Part shown: piece after piece, positions 4,401 through 41,326 of the stretch
How the letters are laid out: every line of letters starts with the position of its first letter
Position numbering within the stretch: the first letter of the stretch is position 1
Translations under genes and position numbers: made by a program
Origin: Halocafeteria seosinensis
Lineage: Eukaryota
Direction of reading: 5' to 3'
Length of the DNA: 41,326 nucleotides
Assembly: GCA_001687465.1 (NCBI GenBank)
Contig: LVLI01000379.1
Coordinates: 1-41,326 of the forward strand
Notes under the pieces: generated by a model
The model's input: the letters and a program-made list of their open reading frames with translations, nothing else
Database searches by the model: none
Told to the model about the DNA's origin: nothing

Positions 4401-7065
4401 GTATGCTCGGCTTTACCCGGATGTTGTCGCTTAGTAGATGCTTCGGATGAGTTGTTTTCCACAGTATGAAGACGCTCTTCTCCTTGATCCACTGGAACAT
4501 ACGATACACCACGGCTTCGATCCTTCTCATTTTTCCATTGGTCTAAAGCACGGCGAAGAGAGTTGAACTGGAATCGCTCAGCAGCAGCATAAGCGGCAAC
4601 ACGCTCGCGATCCCTTGCCAATGTAGTCGCAAACTTAAGGGCTTGAAAAAAGGTATTAATGAGCTTCGAGTATCTTCTGCGGCTTACTTCGTCGGCGCTG
4701 TTACACAACCTGAGATGATACGCGCATCTTTGCTTCCAACGGCGCAAACCACGACGCAGTATACAGGCTGCAATCCGTTTTTCTACGAAATCAAGGCCTC
4801 GCTTTGAGTCAACAAATTGAAGCCACTTTTGTATGCAGTGTTTTTTCCTAGACGTCTGTAGCATTTCAAAAGCAATGAGACTAGAATTCATCGAGAATTG
4901 GTGCCAACTTTGGAATACTTTCCGCAATAGAGAGGCTTCATATTTTCGGACAGCTTTATCGTGCAAATCTTTGGAATTGATCAAATCCCCCCACGTACAG
5001 AAATACCGTTTTAATTTCTTCAACTGCATACTGGGAAAGTTAGCTGGGTGTGTTGGTTGCTGCTGTTGTAACTGTGCTTTTCCCCGCAATCGTGAGATTT
5101 CAGCTTCAAGCTGTTGGACCCTGTCAGAAAGTCGCTCATTGCTTCGATCCTTCTCCTGACGCGTCCGATGCGCATCAGCAGCTAGTCGCTTATTGTCTTC
5201 AATCAGCCTGCTATTTTCTTGTTGCAATTGAGAAAGGGCTTCCACGGCTTTTTGGTGGTTGGAGGCGTTAGCAGTCCTAAAGGATTCCAGCTTCGAGCGC
5301 AGCTCCGCATTTTCCTTCCTTAAATCCCTCAACTCATAATTCTCAGAGGCGTTCCCGCTATGTTCTTTAGCGTTTGGATGGTGCTCCCAATCATATGGTT
5401 TGGGAACCTTCCGAGGGTCATTGGTCCCACTCGTTTGCTCGTCGTGTGGTCCTTTGGAATAGCACTTTACTTTTGAGGGTTGTCTTTCTTCTACACCAAG
5501 CTCGTCCCCACTGGATTGTTGCGAGGAAGATGGGGGTTCTGAATGAGCTCTTCGAGGGTATGTACCCTTTCGCGTTGGTAAATTCACCTTTTCTACAGAT
5601 CGGGTGGGTCGGGAGGTTGAGGCATCCGTTTGTTTCCGCCAAAGTTGTCGGGTATATGCAGTGTCTGGTAGAGATGAAGCAGTGCTTCGTCTGGATTGAA
5701 GGAGATCCCGGCGCTGTGTATCTGTAACATAGCCTCGTTTCCGTACCGTGGATTTCGAGACAGGCCGAGTGGAAGCGTTCGTAGTTACTTGTTGCTCGGC
5801 CTCTTCCCTCCACACGTTGCTGCTATCCTTTTTTCGTAGCCTAGAGAGCATATCATAATTCTTACCACAGTTTTCCTCAATAGCTTGAAGCAAATCCTGT
5901 AACTGCCATTGCTGCTTTGATATAACTCTCTGAAATGCAAGCTTGAGTTGCTGATCTCGCCACTCTGGCAGTTCCAATTGTTGGCCTTGTCTATCAAGTT
6001 GCCCTCTCTTGTTTTCAGCATCATACCTTGTCTCTGGGCTCTCCTTTTGAGAGGTTTTTGCTCTTGCATAGCTTCTTATCAAGCGCTGTGCAGGCTGTAC
6101 CACGGAGGTGTAGCCAGAGGCGCCTTCCTTGTGTGGCGTCACATTCTCCGGATCATTGGAAGACTTATTGTGCGAGCAGCCAGGACCCCCAGAGTTTTCT
6201 TCTTCTCCACTCTTGGGTTCAACTTGAGAAGCCACAGATGGTGTTTGCTTGGAAGGCTGGCGCAGTTCATATGCAATACAATTCCTTGTACTCTGAATCT
6301 GCTTGTAAAGGGATAGTTGAACTACATCAACTTCCTCTTGACTCATGTAATTTGCAAACTGTGGCATCTGGCTAGAGCAAAACAGTCCAATGTCAGACTT
6401 AGAGGGTTGAGGCATGGACAGCTGCCGTGCTATTGCATTTCCCGGAGCAAGTCCAGTCCAGACTCTCCTCAGCAGCTCACCATGTACCCTGATTTTATTC
6501 CGCATCACCATTAGCTGATAAAGCCTTAGCTGGTTATTGAACAAATTCTGCAGCATGTTCCTGTATTCTTTCATCATCCTAGATGCCTGGTTCCGTTCTC
6601 GAGCGGAAACAAGCTCTCCATCAAGGGATTTTAACGATGGTAGCGTCGTAATCACTTCCTCTCGATAGCACGGAGATTGAGCCACCGGGTTTCCGCTCAG
6701 GCGCAAGTGCGTCAGTCTGTTGAGCTTAGATAACCATTCTAACGCATTTGTAGCTCCTAGAAGGTTATCTTGTAATGATAACCGCTGTACGTTTTGGAAT
6801 TGATCGATGTGTTGCAGTGACTGTAAGTAATTGGCGGAAAGGTAGATCGTAGAAATTCTCCCAGATAAGGAAGGCAATTTATCCAACGACGTGATTCCAT
6901 GGCCAGCAAGATGCAATCTATGGGCTTGGATAGATTTCGGGTCGTCTTGTATGGCTTCCGAGAGCTGCCGTATGGAAAAAGCATGCCCCATGAGTATCAA
7001 TCAATTAATGAGCCAAGCCGACCAAACCCTAAACGCTTCTACGTACCGTGTACTGTTTCCTCCAT
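1430..7065 (-). CDS. Large LRR (SDS22-like/LRRcap) + coiled-coil + Sfi1-like centrin-binding repeat protein with long disordered C-terminus; probably centriole/basal-body associated
   Basis: 1856-aa ORF at 1430-7000. N-terminal LRRs (IYLSANYLQSL, LSLQDNLL, LRLSGNPV) and an LRRcap (YREEVITTLPSLKSLDG), then a heptad coiled coil. Sfi1-consensus repeats include AVRKYEASLLRKVFQSWH and AAERFQFNSLRRALDQWK. A short first exon probably starts at ATG 7065; its splice sites are uncertain. Confidence 0.8.
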
Positions 7066-29335: not shown

Positions 29336-30178
29336 AAGGAATTCAGTGATCCTTGGGTGGAAGCTACCTTTAGGGCATAGTCGTGCAATGGTCGTATATT
29401 CTGTTGTCACAGTAGACCGAGTTGTGCCACCATGTGACTAAAGGGGAACGGAGACTTAAGATTTGCGATGAACTTTCTTCATACGAGTGTATATGGCAAA
29501 ATAAATGAACCCGTGGTGGTCCAAGCCTGTGGATTTGTAGTATAACGCTATCTGGCCCGGTCGGGAGTGCGCCTGAGCAAATCTTCGACGTGGGTCTCTA
29601 TTTCTCCCAACAGTCTTCTGTCTTTCGTTTCTTCACCATGTTCCCTAGTAGGGGTACACCCTTGATGTTTTGGGTTCTACGCCTTGCTTCGTTATTTCCC
29701 GTAGAGTGTTTAAAACCTGTCCAGCACCCTCAAGGAACATGTGTCCAACGCGAGACACAAGAGCCATCCTTCTTATCCACCACGAAGCGTTTGCGACAGT
29801 TTCAATAAATTTTTGATGCAAAGCGCTCCAAAGAAATCCTGCAATTTTATTAAACGTCACCAAATTCTTCGCCCGAAGCGGGTTCCGTCAAACCGACTAC
29901 TTTGCATAGATCCGGTTGATTGTTTGGAACTTGTTCCGCAGCAGCATACAAACAAACACCCGCAGAAGCAGCAACCCGCTTTAAGCGAGCAATTTGTGTC
30001 CGTCTTTCTCCGTGGCTGAGGTACATTTGTGGTACACTCCGTACTTCGCTGTTTCGTGTGGTATTTAATGATCGGAGCTTCCAGGATTTGTTGTTACAAG
30101 TGGGCCCGTCGCTGCTTAACACGCTCCTCGTTAAGAAGATGTGGTCAACTCCCCGGCCGGTGGGCTATCTGTCACATA

Positions 30179-30200
30179 TGTGTGTGTGTGTGTGTGTGTG
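30179..30200. repeat. (TG)11 microsatellite
   Basis: Seen directly in the sequence. Confidence 0.97.
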
Positions 30201-30509
30201 ACAAAGCTAGCGTTCCGATGGTGGAAGCTAGTTCGACGATGTCATTCCGTCAGATGCAACTACCGGGAATGGTCAATGATGCTTTTCTCTAGCAATAATC
30301 TTGATTCCATTGGTGGAGTGGAGCAGACAAGAGTGCACCCTTATTATATGAGTATTAATGTTCTCCCTGATGCATCGACTAAACCTTTACAACGATTCCA
30401 ACGCAGATTTGTGCAGACGAGTGTGTATTCGTATAAATTCTACAGTTGTCAGTATGTGGATAGTAAAATCACGATTGTCTAACAATGGTAGTTTCAATGC
30501 GTGCCCAAA

Positions 30510-31096
30510 TCAATGTGAAAGAATCCGTGTCTGCAAATCCGCTCTGTGCCTGCATCACATGCGATGGACAAGTATAGCCGGAACCAAATAAGAACTCTAA
30601 ATTCACATACTCGCTGCTCACTAGCTCGGGATTCCTTTGTTGAACGCGCAATGCAATGGCTAGGGTAATAATCTTGAGTGATCCTCCCTGGGGTTTGACA
30701 CCGTTTTCTTTGAGCCAGTCCTGGAAATCCTCCATGGCTTCATTCAGATTTCCTCCGTTCGAGCTGAGCAATTCTGACAACTTGGCGTCGAGTTTATGAG
30801 CGCTTGTTATGCCATTTTCGCGCAACTCGCGTGCCGAAGCTTCGCCAATTCGAGGAACTGCTCGGAGCTCCCCAGGATCAGCCGCCGCGTAGTCCAAGAT
30901 ACTTTCCACCTTCGTCTGGAGGCCAGCAGGAATATCGATAGTTAGAGCCCAAGTACGAAACACGCAATCCTTATTCTTAATGGGTATAATTTAATACAAT
31001 AAATGGTAAACTTACGCTCATAAACCTTCTCTGCTCGTCTCCGAGGCGTTTATAAGCCTCCTTCGAGAGCACATTCTGGAAAGGGTTAATGTTCAT
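30510..31096 (-). CDS. Barrier-to-autointegration factor (BAF)-like helix-hairpin-helix protein, about 141 aa
   Basis: Exons 31096-31016, 30915-30611 and 30549-30510. Introns are GTAAGT..CTAAC..CAG (100 nt) and GTATGT..CAG (61 nt). The protein ...FMSTKVESILDYAAADPGELRAVPRIGEASARELRENGITSAHKL...FQDWLKENG...IITLAIALRV aligns without gaps to human BAF I26-G27, L34, G38 and A42, and matches the FxxWL helix. The start codon could be 31021 instead. Confidence 0.75.
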
Positions 31097-31644
31097 TGTT
31101 TCAGAAGTCAGCCTTAGGAATTGCGCAAATACAACAGATTACAAGGATTGCTGAAAATTAATTTACTTGTCTGTCTCTTCAGGTTCAAACCTTTTGATTC
31201 TTCTTCATTGTTAGTACGAAGGCATCCACAAGAGTTGAACCCGATCCTGTTCTTTCCCGCTGTGCGAGAATTCTCTTTTTGTTCGGCCTAAGCGAGGCGC
31301 GCGGCGGTCCGCACCTTCCCGGAAAACCATCTAACGTCAACCAACACCCATAACGATTTTGCATCATCCAATATGCTCTCTCTCTTGCAACAGCTCGAGT
31401 TTCATTGCCTTTAATGCTCTGGTTTGTTAGTATACGGGTGTCAGGATACCGAACCGCCTCGTTCCCGCTTTGCGAGAATTTTCTGTAGGAACAACCGAAG
31501 TTGAACATGCACACAGGATTCGTCAAGAAAGGTAAATTACCATAAACGATTTCGTATTGTTGGTGAGGCTCTCTCTTACTGCACTTTGGGTCTATTGCCT
31601 TAGTTCCTCCGGTTGCAACTACTGTGGGCGACGGGAAGAGGGAG
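31097..31644. promoter_or_regulatory. Putative shared bidirectional promoter of the BAF-like and kinase-BAF genes
   Basis: 548 nt between divergent ATGs, containing no convincing gene. Confidence 0.45.
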
Positions 31645-33382
31645 ATGGCTCCACGCAAACGTCAACGGGACAACGTGGCTGGCGCATCAGACAGGTCTCC
31701 TGCGGTCAAGACTAAGAATGAGAGAAACTGGGTTGGCAGGACGATTAATGGGTGGTATGTACAGGCCGTGATTGGTGAAGGGAGTTTCGGTACTGTATAC
31801 GAGGGTAAGGATTATCCCCGATTTCCTAACTACATGTATAATGCATCTCAGCGCTGACTCTTCGTTCCAGTTAGAGGAGGAAGCAAATCCAACCCACGGA
31901 CATACGCCATGAAGGTAGCAAAGCCAGATACAAGCGCGGCGCGATATCTCAACTGTGAAATTACACTCCTCCGGAACAACTTGAGAGGGAAGCATGGGGT
32001 TCCCCAAATACCTAGTCTTTCTGAAGCCAGTGGGATGTACGAGGGCAACCTTTACCTCATCATGGAAAAATTCGAGACAAATCTGGAGCAGATAGCAAAA
32101 CAACGAAAATTGTCTGAAAAGCATATTTCTTCACTTGCCTACGAACTAGTACGAGTTGGCGAACGCCTGGTTACTCTTTGCCATCCATCCCATGGGTATG
32201 TGATTTGCATTTGCACAGGTTCGGACGTTACAAGACGTACATGAAGCCGACCACTTGTATGTGGACCTAAAACCTGAAAACATAATGCTCGGATCTGCTA
32301 CTCACAATGTGAAAGAGAAAGTTGCTCTAGTGGATTATGGGTGTGCGTCGCTGCTCAGTGGGGCTGGCCAATACCAGACAGTGAATGAAGACGGCACGAG
32401 GATGTATATGTCTCGCTTCGCCCTGCAGACTACCGGTAAGCGATTCAGAAGATAGTTTGCATTCTGTGTCTATGGCAGGCATCTATCATAGTTCGACATC
32501 AAACCATTCATATATTCATGATCTCAGAGAAATCCCCGCGGAACGACCTCCAATCTCTGGCTTATATACTGTGTGAGCTGGCAGCAGGCTCCTTGCCATG
32601 GTCAAACGCACGTACAACAAAAGAATTGGACTCTATCAAAGAGTCCGTGAGTACAGAAGTTTTGACCAAAGATACTCCAACTTGCGTCAAAAGGTTTACC
32701 TCCATAGTGAACTCGCTCCCGAGTAACAAACCGTGCGACTATACATCTCTGCTGAACTGCTTTGAATACGACTACATGAGCATTCATGAGCTAGTAGTTC
32801 CAGGAAACCGTAGCAAATCGCTTAGACCGCGGAAATCAAGGAAGAACTATGATCAGACTGTTCGGAAAAACAGTTCCGCTGAGTTACAGTCGACAGGGGT
32901 AGATCCGAAAGTAAGTCGACAACCCTACCCATAGTCAGGTACCGGTATTCTGTTGAACGTTATACTATTCCTTCTCTCCAGTTAAGACGCGTCGCCTTGG
33001 ATGTCACCATCCAAAAGCTTGACTCAATTCCGGGCATTGGGAAAAGTATTGTCACTTCATTGAATAACTACGGCGTGCCTAACATTCAAGGTCTGGCGTT
33101 CCGTTTCCAAGCGGGATTAACAGAGAACAACACGGAAGGAACAAGAAAGGCGTGCAGCGAATTCAGTGCATGGGTCGCACAAAATATCTGCTCGGACAAG
33201 CAAGTACTGAAGAACTTGACCTCTGTTGCCGCAATCCGGTTGAAGACCGGATATGGAAACTGTGTTTTTGACGAGTATGTATCACTTGCCCTCTCCTTTA
33301 ACGGCTGCATGTAATTGGTTTCCATTGTTGCTGCAGCGGCATTCGTCAATTTGTCAACTCCTTTAGGAAGGCTCATGGTTAA
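31645..33382 (+). CDS. VRK/CK1-superfamily Ser/Thr kinase fused to a C-terminal BAF-like domain, about 458 aa
   Basis: Exons 31645-31804, 31871-32148, 32219-32435, 32528-32910, 32982-33274 and 33337-33382 total 1377 nt in frame. Motifs: IGEGSFGTVY, YAMK, YVDLKPEN, LVDYG, DGTRMYMS (no APE), SPRNDLQSLAY, GSLPW. Exon 5 encodes LDSIPGIGKSIVTSLNNYG...FSAWV. NLS-like PRKRQR at the N-terminus. Confidence 0.85.
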
Positions 33383-34684
33383 TCTTTGGAAGAAAGGCGC
33401 CTCGATTTAGAGCTCGCTCGCAGCGACTCGCACACTCCTTTTCTGTCGATTTGTAGTACAGCGCAGGTGATACTCCTCTTAACAGCTACAGCGCTTCGCG
33501 CACTCCTTTCCTTTCGATGATTCATGTTTGACGTACAGGTGATATCAGATGCAGCATGCACGAAATCATCTATCGATTCTTGACATCGATTTCCATGGGT
33601 TTCACGCAGAATGCGACACATGAACACACATCTTCACCCATATCCCCGCATTGAGACCATAGCAGTATATTGGACTTTCTTCCTTCCTCTTTCGCAAGAA
33701 TCAATACTGTCATCATAAGAAGTTTATCATGGCTGGCTTCAAGAAATTCAAGTTATGAAGCATGGAAGATACCATACCGCTGGTCTGATTGTACAGTGCA
33801 CTACACAAAGGTTTTTGCGGGATGCATTGACACACACATACATGCGCGAACAATTTCAAGTGGCGCTAGTGTACGACCAGTCAAGTCAATGCACATCGTA
33901 GCCACGTAGCGCTGTGCCCGGTAAGGGGACATCATCTACAAGTTGTAGTACATTTTCTAAACAGTTCGGAAAGTGATCATAGGAGCGCTATACAAGGCAG
34001 AGCATCATGACACTGAATCCTGTCATGAAGTTAGAGCTCTTGGGCTCAGATATTTAGGATTCGGAAGAAAAGCCCGGGTGTGAAGTGTCTTTCATATGGA
34101 AGGAAGACTAAAACTACTACACTGTACGCTTCATTCGAGTGGCAGTTCATAAAATATTACACATCGCGTTTCTTGACTAGACTCTCCAACATTGTTAGGA
34201 AACTACAAATTGTCTACAATAGTGTTGGCCACACACACATGTATTGTTGCCTCTTCGCCTTAAAATGGATTCGCCTTAAAATAGATCAGTCCAATACCAT
34301 TAATATGTCAGCTATTCGAGGGATAGTTTGACAAAACGCACGACCGCACATTTCGTTCAAACATTCTTCCCTGTTGATACTCAGTGCAGTTGCACTATAA
34401 CACACTTGCGAGTCAGCACTTCCTCTTGAAGCCTCCCGGGACCCTGGGATATCCAGCCTGTGAAGAACAAAAGATACGATACTTTCGCACATTCCCTGTA
34501 GACCACACAGTATCAGTACTTCGTTTCCAAGATGCATTGACAGAAAGATAACTACTTAAGTTGTTGTACTAGTGATACAGATACTGTCTTCTACACGCAT
34601 GCATCGCGCGCTGTTTGTGAGATATCTTGCATATTATAGTGGCTCCCTCACATTCACTTATTCATACATACAGAGAGATAAAAA

Positions 34685-37600
34685 ATGACACCACAGCCTG
34701 TCATTAAATTAGAGCTATTAGGCTCAGATGGTAAGCCTCATGAGCACCGTGTGCGCGCTCTTGTTTTCTTCATTCAATTCAATTTGTTCTTCGATGCGCA
34801 GCGATTCGCACTTCGATTATTTTTACTCATTTGATTCTCATCATTGGAGGCATTCTTACCGGCATTACTCAGCTGGGCTATGACCGTCATTCGGTGCCGT
34901 CTTTACCCTTTGAAGCATGTGCGGAGCACATCCCCATTACCGGAAAGAACGCCTGCTACGTTGAATGTCACCAAAACTTTACGTGGATGGGTCTTTCAGA
35001 CCACGTTTCTCCGAACGCGGGAGAATTCAAGCTGGGCATTGACATACCAGACATCAAGCAAACGTTTTCTTTCAAGTACAAGGCGAGTATCTATGGTGGT
35101 GACCAGAGCTCATTCGACTGGACGAATGCAGTGGATAAGGGATGCTCACCAATGGACAAGAAAATGCAGGGATGGGGAAAAGTGTTCTACCAAGAAAAGA
35201 AGCGACAGACGTGTTCCACAAACAAATGTGAGGATTTGCAAATAGTTGATACGTCATCGACAGTGTGGGGTCAACAGCGAGGAGGATATAGCCGGTATCT
35301 TATGGTGATCCAATTCTGGGACAAGATCGTTGACGATTTTGCAGGGTCTGAGTTTACCTTGAGCTATAGGATACCCCAGTTTCGAGAGTTTGTTGTCGGA
35401 CTGCGAACTACGTTTACGATCTTGTCCCTCATTTGTTTGCTATATTGGGTGTGCTCTGTCCGAGAGTTTCCTAAGCGGCTTGGCGGCAGTCGATTCAAGT
35501 TCTTCTGCTGCTGCTGCTGCGGTGGCGGCCCACCATTGCTCAGATTGGTGTTTTGGTTCTTATTGAGTGTAGCTCTCTGGCAGAATCCAATTTTTATGAT
35601 TGCACAACTAGGGGAATATCGAAGCATTGACTTGAATGTCGTCGCGGAAGCCTTCAATTCAGTGGCATGGTCGTTCTTGCTAGCAATATGGTCTCTGATG
35701 GCATACGAAGCCGGCAGTTTCGATGAGCAGAAATCCAGAGATAAAGATGCTTGGAAGGTTTATACGATCTCTTTTCTCTTCGGCATCTTACTATCGGTAA
35801 CATCCGTTTTGATGAATGTGGCCAGTAAACCCGAATTGTTCACTGGAAACGGCATTGAGATCTTTGGAATATCTGAGGTAAACCATGACCTCCGCGTTGC
35901 GGGGATTGCCTTGGGCGCGGTCTATCTCGTGCTACTAATCCTTTGGACCATTTGGTTTGGCTTTATGATTTTGATTTCTTGGGCCACACTTCGCGATACA
36001 GTATTCATGAGGACACGTGCACGGCAGCTGATTGTCCGTTATTTCATGTGGCAGACGATTACTGTTGTCCTATTTGTCGTCATCGTTGATATTATTCCGG
36101 TTGTTGGCTATTTCAAAAAAGCGTATGAGCACTTTGAGAACGGTAAAGCGATCAACACTGAGACCGCAAAACTAGTAGGGATTGTGCAGAAAATCTCGCA
36201 AGGTTACCAATCGGTCGGATCCTACTTCCTGGTTGCTGTACACGCACTCTTCCTTTTCTATGCGTTGCTTCCCCCTCGGGCTGTTGGATCAGTAGAAGGT
36301 TTTTGTTGGAAAATTTTGGGCATAATTACACTTTCCGGAAGCAATGAAAGAAAGCGTCCGTTCTCTGTTATGGAAGCAAGTTGGTTGTTTGACTTCATAT
36401 GTGCCGCCAACTATGATCCAGAAAATACCACCCGGATCAACGCAGATGACAGGACTGAATCAACCCCACAAGAAACGCGTGAAGCGACAAAACAGTCTAA
36501 GGGTCCTTTGGAAGTGGCGCCACATGGTTTCTCTATTGACGGGTTTATATACAGTAAAAAATCTGGAACCATCGTTATTGTGTTCCGGAAAGAGTTCAGA
36601 GTCGTCCTTGTTTTTCGCGCAGCTGCCCAAGATAGCGTGCGTCCTAGTTTGTTGCACGAAGAGGAGGTGAATATGCAGTCTCTCGCTTTCTCTAAAGAAG
36701 ATTCAGGCTTCTGTTCTTGTTGTCCGGGGTTGAGGGAAATATCTCCCCGCGTTCGGGAGGATATGTGGAAGCGATATGTGTCTGTTCGGGAGGCACTCCA
36801 TCGTTCTCTGGCAATGGTTTTATACCTCGCAGGAAAGGATTTGAAACTATACAGTACAGGGTTCGGTATCGGGGGAGGGGTTGCAGCTCTTGCAGCCTAC
36901 GACTGTAGGCACCTGGTTGAAAATTCGCGAAGAGACACTAAGCGAGGATTCTGTTCAATAGTATGTCATGGTGTGTATTCTGCCTTGACATGTGGGTGCT
37001 GTTTTAGAGGCGACGAGAGCGCCCCTCTGTTGGAAGGGGACGAGGAGAACCATCCTCGTGGACAGCCTATCAACGCCTCTTCTTCGAATTGCATATCTGC
37101 TCTTACAAGTCAAGACAGTGACAACCAGCTTAACACTATGTTCCGGAAGATGTGCGGCTCCGAACCTATCACGCGTCCGGATGTGTGTGTGGGCGAGGAC
37201 TCCGATGTTGATAACAGCTCAACCTCCGCAAATGAGAGAAACGATATAGTCCGAGTGTACACTTTTGGGACGGAACGAGTAGGCAACTTCAGATTCACTG
37301 CTAAGGTAAGTGAGTCTTCAAACTTCTCAACATTTCAGGTATTCGTAACCTCATTTCCGTCTGCTCGCAGTATAAGCACGCAATTCCTTGGACGTTTAAC
37401 GTTAGTACTGAAGGAGATTATTTCACGAGGCGACCGGAGGAACGTTTTCCTCTCAAGCAGCCCGGAAATTTTGTACTTATTGACAAGTGAGTCATATTTT
37501 CCTATAGCAGTAACCGAACCTGTGCTTACGTGTGACTCAATGATGTCCAGAAGGGGCAACGTTCTCCAGGATCCTTCGCTTCTAGAGCGTGCACTCGTCG

Positions 37601-37779
37601 TTAAAGGAGGTGGCGTACAAATGCATGATCCTGAAAGCTACAAGCTGTGCCTGTACGCGTCGAGATTCCGAAGTAGGCTGCACGTGAATGAAGAAGTCGC
37701 CAATATCCGAGAAGAGGAGCTTCCCACTCTGCGGGATGGTATCCATCCCACCCTGCGCGGACGCCCCTCAACCTCATAG
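34685..37779 (+). CDS. TMEM181/Wntless-like multi-pass membrane protein fused to a class-3 lipase domain lacking the nucleophile Ser
   Basis: The first exon from ATG 34685 splices into ORF 34831. TM region FVVGLRTTF...LWQNPIF...FLLAIWSLM resembles TMEM181. Lipase-3 blocks VVLVFR, STGFGIGGGVA, VYTFGTERVGN and, after two introns, YKHAIPWTFNVSTEGD...KQPGNFVLIDKRGNVLQDPSLLE. Confidence 0.8.
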
Positions 37780-39284: not shown

Positions 39285-39989
39285 ATGCCGCCTACCAAAC
39301 GAAGAACCAAAAAACTGAAAGCAGGCACCTGGAATTCCGCTAACTATCGAACCCGGCTCCCTAAGCGTTTGAGTGAAGAGTGTTTCTCTGAGGAAACGAC
39401 ACGCTGTGGTTCCAATGACTCTATGACTGTGTTTGGGCATCCCACCGCTGCAGGTCGGGATGAAATGAATGCACCGGCGTCTACAGTGACTTCTACGTCT
39501 AGTAGACACATGGACGACCACGACGTCATATTTGAAGGATCGCGGTATATTGATCATGAGGAGCTTGCTAAAAACATCAAGGAGATATACGCTGGCTCAG
39601 CATACTTAATTGGGGGTCATGATCTAAGTTTCCACGACGGTATGCTCCTTCATCAGCACGTGATCTTGCGTCATAATAAATTCATGGGCTTCGGTGACCA
39701 AATCCACGGATTTGTTGAAGAAATTGACGATGAGCACTTACGCGGATGGGTTGAAAAAAAATGGATTCTTCATAGAGCTAACCTGGCGACGATGCACGTA
39801 TATCCGGAGACACGTCTCCTCTCAACTCCGGTGCTCAACGGGAGCAAATTGTGGAATACTCCCAAAGAAGACACGCCGCTTCCTACCAAACCAAGTGAAT
39901 TCCTCTTCTCCCCTTTTGGTCACGGACTCTGGTCGACATACTGTGTTGGAAGTGTTGTACCTTTTCAATGCTGGTCGTTGCTTGGGTGA
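39285..39989 (+). CDS. Orphan repeat-borne protein, copy 1 (C-terminus differs from copy 2)
   Basis: 234-aa ORF with a basic NLS-like start (MPPTKRRTKKLK). The duplicated segment encodes the same protein as copy 2. No family recognised. Confidence 0.5.
   Translation: MPPTKRRTKKLKAGTWNSANYRTRLPKRLSEECFSEETTRCGSNDSMTVFGHPTAAGRDEMNAPASTVTSTSSRHMDDHDVIFEGSRYIDHEELAKNIKEIYAGSAYLIGGHDLSFHDGMLLHQHVILRHNKFMGFGDQIHGFVEEIDDEHLRGWVEKKWILHRANLATMHVYPETRLLSTPVLNGSKLWNTPKEDTPLPTKPSEFLFSPFGHGLWSTYCVGSVVPFQCWSLLG
39431..39896 (+). repeat. 466-bp inverted duplication, arm 1
   Basis: Reverse complement of 40861-41326 with 4 substitutions and no indels. Arm 2 runs off the window end. Confidence 0.96.
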
Positions 39990-40137: not shown

Positions 40138-40246
40138 GACGACGAAGATGTGACTGATGGCCCACCGGCAGTTGGATGTTAGCCGCTACACTTAGGTAGC
40201 AGCTGGCGCCCGTGTCTGGCAGCTACAGGCCCGCTGTTCCACTAGG
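40138..40246. repeat. 109-bp dispersed repeat, inverted relative to 812-920
   Basis: See 812-920. Confidence 0.93.
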
Positions 40247-40653: not shown

Positions 40654-41326
40654 TTATGAAGGCCTTCTTCTTATCTTCGGCACTTTGATACCTAAGTTCG
40701 ATAAAGATGTCAGTTTGCGGATAGCACCATGGAAACTCAACGTTTCAACATGACGCAGTTGCGAGCACCGTCTAGGCACCTTCGCTTTGGGAACTTGAGG
40801 AGCTGGTAACCGTTTCGCGATGCACAATGCTTCGTCCAAAAACAGTGGCCAGGGGACTTTACTTGGTTTGGTAGGAAGCGGCGTGTCTTCTTTGGGAGTA
40901 TTCCACAATTTGCTCCCGTTGAGCACCGGAGTTGAGAGGAGACGTGTCTCCGGATATACATGCATCGTCGCCAGGTTCGCTCTATGAAGAATCCATTTTT
41001 TTTCAACCCATCCGCGTAAGTGCTCATCGTCAATTTCTTCAACAAATCCGTGGATTTGGTCACCGAAGCCCATGAATTTATTATGACGCAAGATCACGTG
41101 TTGATGAAGGAGCATACCGTCGTGGAAACTTAGATCATGACCCCCAATTAAGTATGCTGAGCCAGCGTATATCTCCTTTATGTTTTTAGCAAGCTCCTCA
41201 TGATCAATATACCGCGATCCTTCAAATATGACGTCGTGGTCGTCCATGTGTCTACTAGACGTAGAAGTCACTGTAGACGCCGGTGCATTCATTTCATCCC
41301 GACCTGCAGCGGTGGGATGCCCAAAC
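40654..41326 (-). CDS. Orphan repeat-borne protein, copy 2 (5' end beyond window)
   Basis: The frame is open to the window edge. It is identical to copy 1 through ...PLPTKPS, then continues with a different 68-aa basic tail. Confidence 0.5.
   Translation of the reverse strand, partial: FGHPTAAGRDEMNAPASTVTSTSSRHMDDHDVIFEGSRYIDHEELAKNIKEIYAGSAYLIGGHDLSFHDGMLLHQHVILRHNKFMGFGDQIHGFVEEIDDEHLRGWVEKKWILHRANLATMHVYPETRLLSTPVLNGSKLWNTPKEDTPLPTKPSKVPWPLFLDEALCIAKRLPAPQVPKAKVPRRCSQLRHVETLSFHGAIRKLTSLSNLGIKVPKIRRRPS
40861..41326 (-). repeat. 466-bp inverted duplication, arm 2
   Basis: See 39431-39896. Confidence 0.96.

Follow-up and report, generated by a model that had tools for sequence, protein, structure and literature searches.

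BAF (BANF1; PF02961; PDB 1ci4, 9j8m and 7abm) is regarded as an animal feature, as is its regulation by VRK kinases. In the accessible parts of the respective sources, VRK1 and VRK2 phosphorylate BAF at Ser4 (PMC13443024), the tethering of BAF to LEM proteins is likely restricted to metazoans (PMC5630835), and the paralogue BAF-L (BANF2) is a weaker DNA binder that forms heterodimers with BAF (PMC13443024). Here we describe a locus on contig LVLI01000379.1 of Halocafeteria seosinensis that comprises putative remote counterparts of these components. The window, meaning the whole stretch that was analysed, is 41,326 nt long (GC content ~47%), and its sequence is that of a gene-dense, intron-bearing microbial eukaryote. 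The analysis drew on this window, on collections of proteins, on sequence profiles and on two structure models. Gene A, on the minus strand (ATG at 31096, stop at 30510-30512, three exons), encodes a BAF-like protein of 141 amino acids. Gene K, on the plus strand (ATG at 31645, stop at 33380-33382, 458 codons, six predicted exons), encodes a CK1-superfamily kinase that is predicted to be fused to a second BAF-like domain. The two start codons are separated by 548 nt and the genes face away from each other. As for BAF with VRK1 and VRK2, a CK1-superfamily kinase is the putative regulator, but here the genes adjoin, a BAF copy is a predicted part of the kinase, and the kinase is not evidently a VRK. 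A literature search with thin coverage of subscription papers found no BAF-kinase fusion, no linked BAF and kinase genes and no protist BAF. The architecture and the gene pair are undescribed, and are assembled from known parts.

Only one of 23 candidate proteins, P0001 (EukProt, transcript-derived, 141 amino acids), matched exon 2 of gene A. Its sequence bears out the start, both splice junctions and the stop, with a single residue different. Expression and splicing of gene A are thereby shown for the source organism or a very close one. An acceptor for the first intron at 30969 was dropped because P0001 places it at 30915. For gene K, five GT-AG introns (66, 70, 92, 71 and 62 nt) yield a stop-free frame of 458 codons without a frameshift. 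The fourth intron creates the fusion; if it were retained, the kinase would stop at 32932-32934, 21 nt past the donor. Seven GT-AG pairs could join the two frames, and the chosen pair alone has a GTAAGT donor, which is identical to the transcript-confirmed donor of gene A intron 1. Seven neighbouring open reading frames (ORFs) served to train a three-periodic coding model, which gave scores per 100 nt of +3.0 for the linker and +1.4 for exon 5, in both cases only in the splice-joined frames, and a negative score for the intron between them. An earlier note on this DNA, made from the letters alone, had claimed that the kinase is fused to a BAF-like domain. Splice signals, coding statistics and the lack of a start methionine for exon 5 support this as a gene prediction, and we consider the fusion very probably real.

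Both small domains appear to be remote homologues of BAF, with the firmer case for protein A. They resemble metazoan BAF in the helix-hairpin-helix (HhH) motif, in later helices with F-x-x-W and, for A, in fold and in Ser/Thr at positions 3-4; they differ in that identity is ~17-20%, in that scores lie below the Pfam cut-off, and in that helix-3 and LEM-binding positions are changed in the A and K domains. BAF ranked first in the ESM Atlas for both (0.93, 172 features, for A; 0.92, 162 features, for the fused domain), above bacterial HhH families at 0.85-0.87. A model of protein A, with a moderate pLDDT of 63, retrieved BAF first of 48,161 chains in a fold search (Z 7.6 against 6.1 for the runner-up, rmsd 2.7 over 83 of 88 residues). 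Foldseek placed BAF at rank 4 for the same model, with a non-significant E-value of 1.2 and the highest probability (0.57). A Foldseek search of viral structures gave no match. The single-sequence model of the fused domain (pLDDT 58) was too poor and gave no meaningful structural match, and single-sequence PDB searches with the two small domains gave none either. Pfam matches of both domains were all sub-threshold (HhH_5, Cdd1, IMS_HHH and BAF).

A search of 1.84 billion proteins with a profile built from the two domains yielded 54, nine of which were examined over their full length. Relatives of the A type were P0003 (57% identity to A) and P0016/P0055 (38%), and P0004 is a K-type relative (49% to the fused domain); the identities of P0003, P0055 and P0004 indicate constraint on both domain types. 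P0002 and long repeat proteins, with repeated weak HhH-type matches, were set aside. Four unnamed retrieved proteins, P0022, P0030, P0033 and P0036 (one of them from a protist transcriptome collection), are tandem-BAF proteins, i.e., single-chain BAF dimers. They carry two BAF domains per chain and no kinase, and three of the four exceed the Pfam BAF cut-off. Together with a BAF-like Atlas cluster from viruses and oomycetes, they are the nearest bridge from the A and K domains to Pfam BAF. Searched against the PDB, the tandem-BAF profile found human BAF first and seven BAF entries at E-values of 9e-5 to 3e-4, followed by Rad51/RadA at 0.035 or above. Among the 1006 ORFs of the window it matched only those of gene A and the fused domain (4e-13 and 2e-6), so that no further BAF copy was found there, and hhalign gave 98% to the A type and 91% to the K type; the members of this profile had themselves been retrieved with the window's own two domains. 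With a nine-sequence profile the longest match was BAF, and polymerase beta ranked slightly higher. The rival HhH families, including the Rad51-N, DUF4332 and TfoX families raised in the earlier note, fit less well: Cdd1, HHH_5, RadA-N, DUF4332 and TfoX-C all scored below cut-off through short, motif-only matches and lie behind BAF in the Atlas. Homology to BAF thus appears to extend over the whole domain, beyond the HhH motif, when it is traced through the tandem BAFs and the Atlas. The A-K pair could be the split counterpart of a tandem BAF with a kinase on one half.

The two small domains are paralogues of common origin. Their local alignment score of 58 was reached by one of 2000 shuffles (the test used the first gene A model, whose aligned part is unaffected by the later revision), and hhalign of the two types gave 91% probability (E-value 1e-6, 84 columns). 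Both genes have a phase-2 intron in one and the same column of the alignment, with identical donors, and an intron at this position would also fit the read-through ends of P0003, P0004 and P0055. Gene A and the fused domain are 21% identical, versus 57% and 49% within types, and the split of the two types is therefore old. BAF and BAF-L are a comparable paralogue pair, one member of which binds DNA more weakly and forms heterodimers; the difference is that the present paralogues are only 21% identical and that one is part of a kinase. The layout (A reversed, then kinase, then BAF copy) is also what local inverted duplication would produce. A BAF gene duplicate could have landed behind the kinase and been kept as a DNA tether, with A and K now independent, and the shared intron position, the frequency of head-to-head pairs in the window and the different transcript evidence for A and K all fit such a history. 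The 21% identity, on the other hand, implies an old duplication and a long-lasting adjacency, and we consider it rather unlikely that the adjacency is merely historical.

The kinase of gene K looks catalytically intact. It has the Gly loop, the subdomain II Lys, the catalytic Asp, Lys and Asn, DYG and LPW, and the catalytic loop reads Tyr-Val-Asp where His-Arg-Asp is expected (non-RD). Two basic stretches resemble nuclear localization signals (NLS). With the CK1-group kinases (CK1, TTBK1/2, VRK1-3 and vaccinia B1) it shares CK1-type subdomains VIII and IX, the lack of APE and the LPW motif. Exon 3 matched Pfam Pkinase above cut-off, with CK1 (Yck2) as its top PDB match, and exon 4 matched TTBK1/2 and CK1 at E-values of 5e-6 to 2e-4 (33 matches at E ≤0.1). 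These matches bear out the membership of the CK1 superfamily claimed in the earlier note, and the kinase is a very divergent member. Its further description as VRK-like was not upheld: single exons rank TTBK and CK1 above VRK. Exon 4 had 65 PDB matches (E ≤10), of which the best 60 include VRK only as VRK3 (E 0.18, 31 residues), with VRK1 and VRK2 absent from these 60. A protein search with exon 4 found no relatives, making the kinase an orphan. The non-RD loop and DYG are features that we take to be VRK-type.

A viral scan with kinase exon 3 found 28 generic kinase loci, none of which (0/28) has a BAF-like ORF. The best match of the gene K kinase among them was L004 (29% over 216 residues), a weak hint of VRK affinity, as L004 may be the only CK1-group kinase of this set. 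L004 (positions 4795-6477) is a 561-codon ORF on a 242-kb giant-virus-type contig from IMG/VR that encodes a non-RD, DYG-type kinase with VRK1 as best PDB match (E 9e-24); there is no BAF-like ORF within 6 kb of it. Viral scans with BAF-like queries gave no locus. A metagenome scan with 390 pattern matches yielded one locus, which is a bacterial gene for a membrane protein and was taken as a false positive, and two bacterial loci, one of them the same false positive, came from 253 matches in a genome scan. Two CK1-group kinases have been placed in the last common ancestor, with VRK unmentioned in the accessible part of that source (10.1101/2020.01.27.920793). Three stramenopile genomes have 3-4 CK1-group genes each, and the oomycete CK1s described in the accessible part of the same paper lack an extra C-terminal domain, unlike gene K (PMC3019232). 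Because there are only 3-4 such genes per genome, we estimate that a random neighbour would be a CK1-group kinase in ~2-3 of 10,000 cases.

Residues were mapped on human BAF by ungapped counting from the HhH glycine. The fused domain, P0003 and P0055 retain both HhH glycines, Gly25 and Gly27; A has Arg for Gly25, and P0004 has Ser for Gly27. At the helix-3 dimer residues Leu46, Gly47, Leu50 and Val51, A has D/A/S/E and the fused domain A/F/Q/A. Position 46 is acidic in all three A-type proteins (D/D/E), and position 47 is Phe or Leu in both K-type domains (F/L). According to the accessible part of PMC2173821, human BAF fails to bind DNA as the mutants 25E and 46E, and its dimers are weakened by 47E and 51E. 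The few sequences at hand suggest that neither small domain is a standard homodimer. Because the helix-3 changes are type-specific and conserved, a matched A-K pair would fit better than two homodimers. Protein A differs from human BAF by an N-terminal extension of 26 residues, after which Ser27 and Thr28 occupy BAF positions 3 and 4 (Thr3/Ser4), a correspondence of position only. Thr at BAF position 4 is kept in P0003, and these few sequences suggest that protein A has a BAF-like phosphorylation site.

We tentatively propose, at somewhat less than an even chance, that genes A and K form a dedicated chromatin switch. Through its fused domain the kinase would be held on double-stranded DNA and on protein A, and it would phosphorylate Ser27/Thr28 of A, whereupon A would be released or switched off. 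Such a switch would resemble BAF with VRK1, with BAF-L-type heterodimerization as the docking device, but its kinase would be another, orphan member of the CK1 group. Human BAF and VRK1 are the model for nuclear location, DNA binding, heterodimer formation or co-binding, and the phosphosite with its effect. Of the options listed in the earlier note, docking of the kinase by its fused domain appears best-supported.

A BAF-domain kinase beside a free BAF-like gene would be Rosetta-stone evidence that the coupling of BAF to a kinase exists outside animals and arose there with another CK1-group kinase. The two-protein system is small enough for reconstitution and could inform on kinase recognition of BAF, on DNA bridging by heterodimeric BAFs and on protist BAF versus giant viruses. 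A much broader generalization would be that microbial eukaryotes repeatedly paired divergent BAF genes with orphan CK1-group kinases as modules, and that here the kinase captured a BAF domain and became a self-targeting DNA-sensing kinase whose heterodimeric partner is obligate; such a BAF switch outside animals might act on invading giant-virus DNA. We regard this as doubtful.

Several results weigh against the proposed switch. P0055 has no Ser/Thr at the BAF 3/4 site, and with Arg25, Asp46 and Glu51 protein A may bind DNA too poorly to need switching off. The same residues, and the acidity of the gene A domain (13 K+R, 17 D+E) beside the basic fused domain (14 K+R, 8 D+E), would suit the reverse arrangement, in which a kinase tethered to chromatin acts on other substrates, and A pairs with the fused domain and holds the kinase off DNA or tunes it. 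The precedent of BAF-L and the finding of A, but not K, as a transcript also fit. Against it, the HhH glycines of P0003 and P0055 imply that A-type proteins may bind DNA, and A has Ser/Thr at the BAF phosphorylation position; we consider this arrangement unlikely.

Further objections to the switch concern the domains themselves. Relative to the Pfam BAF gathering cut-off of 25 bits, gene A scored 13.6 bits and P0003 18.4, and the fused domain had no hit. The Z of 7.6 falls within reach of unrelated helical models. With a five-sequence profile of the A and K types, human BAF was not among the best 60 PDB matches, which were generic HhH proteins only. A 13-row tree supports neither a grouping of the A and K types nor their separation (p-AU 0.36). 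For gene K, no transcript-derived protein was found among 236 and 155 candidates, none of seven exact look-ups of gene K and control sequences succeeded (four of the seven being control ORFs), and no kinase-BAF fusion occurs among the 63 stored proteins. This missing transcript evidence is what would be seen if the fusion were not made, i.e., if the kinase ended at 32934 (354 amino acids) or gene K were silent, with exon 5 a relic. Such a truncation or silencing is highly unlikely, given the strong splice signals, the coding statistics, the lack of a start codon in exon 5, the 49% identical relative and the six open exons.

The head-to-head layout, finally, lends the switch no support. The earlier note had singled out a head-to-head pair in a packed region, and the divergent pair with its spacing of 548 nt is borne out by the coordinates. 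The orientation is not special: the window contains five head-to-head pairs with ATG gaps of 56, 281, 381, 548 and 1016 nt (approximate values, counted from the first ATG in frame). Because head-to-head pairs are the norm here, divergent orientation alone carries no information, and this also counts against reading the pair as a switch. The gene-free stretches of about 1.1-1.3 kb reported on each side are present (1174 nt left, at least 1361 nt right). The coding model gives both flanks non-coding scores in all six frames; none of the 12 flank ORFs scanned had a Pfam match, and Rfam found no non-coding RNA family in the flanks. The left gap stands out, as the other three tail-to-tail gaps in the window measure 6, 8 and 31 nt.

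Long empty flanks in a packed region, tight linkage and rapid divergence would be expected of a selfish toxin-antidote pair in which A clumps DNA and the kinase neutralizes it, as the earlier note had offered. No positive evidence for this was found. Terminal repeats, target duplications, a transposase and cassette boundaries were not found near the pair in the window, its base composition (GC and third-position GC, GC3) resembles that of neighbouring genes, it has spliceosomal introns, and the supposed toxin is expressed and lacks residues on which the DNA binding of human BAF depends. We regard a toxin-antidote pair as very improbable. The integrated decoy for viral kinases, also suggested there, likewise lacks positive evidence: repeats and mobile marks are missing, composition is neighbour-like and the divergence of the domains (21%) is old.

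In plants, paired sensor/helper genes lie head-to-head, with an integrated decoy, an immune-receptor scaffold and a pathogen-triggered output. The A-K layout fits this arrangement, but A and K have no NLR-type (immune-receptor) domain. An antiviral module could work by BAF-like domains that bind naked viral DNA or bait viral VRK/B1-type kinases, with the fused kinase signalling or killing. Rapid divergence, a perhaps inducible gene K, the VRK1-like kinase on the giant-virus-type contig and one BAF-like Atlas cluster that is half viral are in keeping with this. In the accessible parts of the sources, BAF is a restriction factor for poxviruses that B1 inactivates (PMC6395007, PMC13712952). The pair is, however, single copy in the window, the two NLS-like stretches point to the nucleus, the sensor and effector domains of known defence pairs are missing, and the viral kinase loci carry no BAF-like ORF. 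An antiviral role is distinctly improbable. Coordinates of all features are given in Table 1.

Table 1. Features of the A-K locus (positions in the window)
Feature	Position	Strand	Evidence
Left flank, 1174 nt without recognisable gene	29336..30509	.	Coding scores, Pfam, Rfam, gap comparison
Gene A exon 3 and stop	30510..30549	-	P0001
Gene A phase-2 intron, same aligned position as last gene K intron	30550..30610	-	P0001 and alignment
Gene A exon 2, BAF-like HhH domain; opens with Thr28; Arg/Asp/Glu at BAF Gly25/Leu46/Val51	30611..30915	-	P0001, Atlas, fold, profiles
Gene A exon 1, Met1-Ser27, N-terminal extension with Ser27 last	31016..31096	-	Start and junction match P0001
Inter-ATG region, non-coding, 548 nt, candidate shared promoter	31097..31644	.	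Coding scores and layout
Gene K exon 1, NLS-like basic stretch (residues 4-8), Gly-rich loop (44-49)	31645..31804	+	Splice model, motifs
Gene K exon 2, kinase N-lobe with catalytic Lys; alone without PDB match	31871..32148	+	Splice model, coding score, motifs
Gene K exon 3, catalytic loop of non-RD type, DYG, CK1-type subdomain VIII	32219..32435	+	Pfam, PDB, motifs
Gene K exon 4, CK1/TTBK-like kinase C-lobe and basic linker	32528..32910	+	PDB, coding score
Predicted 71-nt intron creating the fusion; GTAAGT donor; 12/13 pyrimidines before CAG	32911..32981	+	Splice signals, coding scores
Gene K exon 5, the second of the BAF-like domains; HhH Gly-Ile-Gly retained; basic overall; no in-frame upstream Met	32982..33274	+	Splice model, profiles, coding score
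Gene K phase-2 last intron	33275..33336	+	Splice model
Gene K exon 6 and stop	33337..33382	+	Splice model
Right flank, at least 1361 nt without recognisable gene	33383..34743	.	Coding scores, Pfam, Rfam, gap comparison

Imperfect direct repeats occur in the inter-ATG region (31241-31276 and 31449-31484, 36 nt, 81%), where they could be duplicated promoter elements, and in the right flank (34007-34051 and 34685-34729, 45 nt, 82%). Beyond the right flank, a 1011-codon ORF (34744-37779) combines a membrane domain resembling Wntless/TMEM181 (E 0.0013, sub-threshold) with a class 3 lipase domain (E 6e-8). An inverted repeat of 476 nt, 98.5% identical, occupies 39431-39906 and 40851-41326, runs past the window end and overlaps a 237-codon ORF without a Pfam match. 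Positions 812-920 match 40138-40246 at 96%, and 382-481 is repeated at 631-730. The repeats at both window ends are possibly subtelomeric or mobile DNA.

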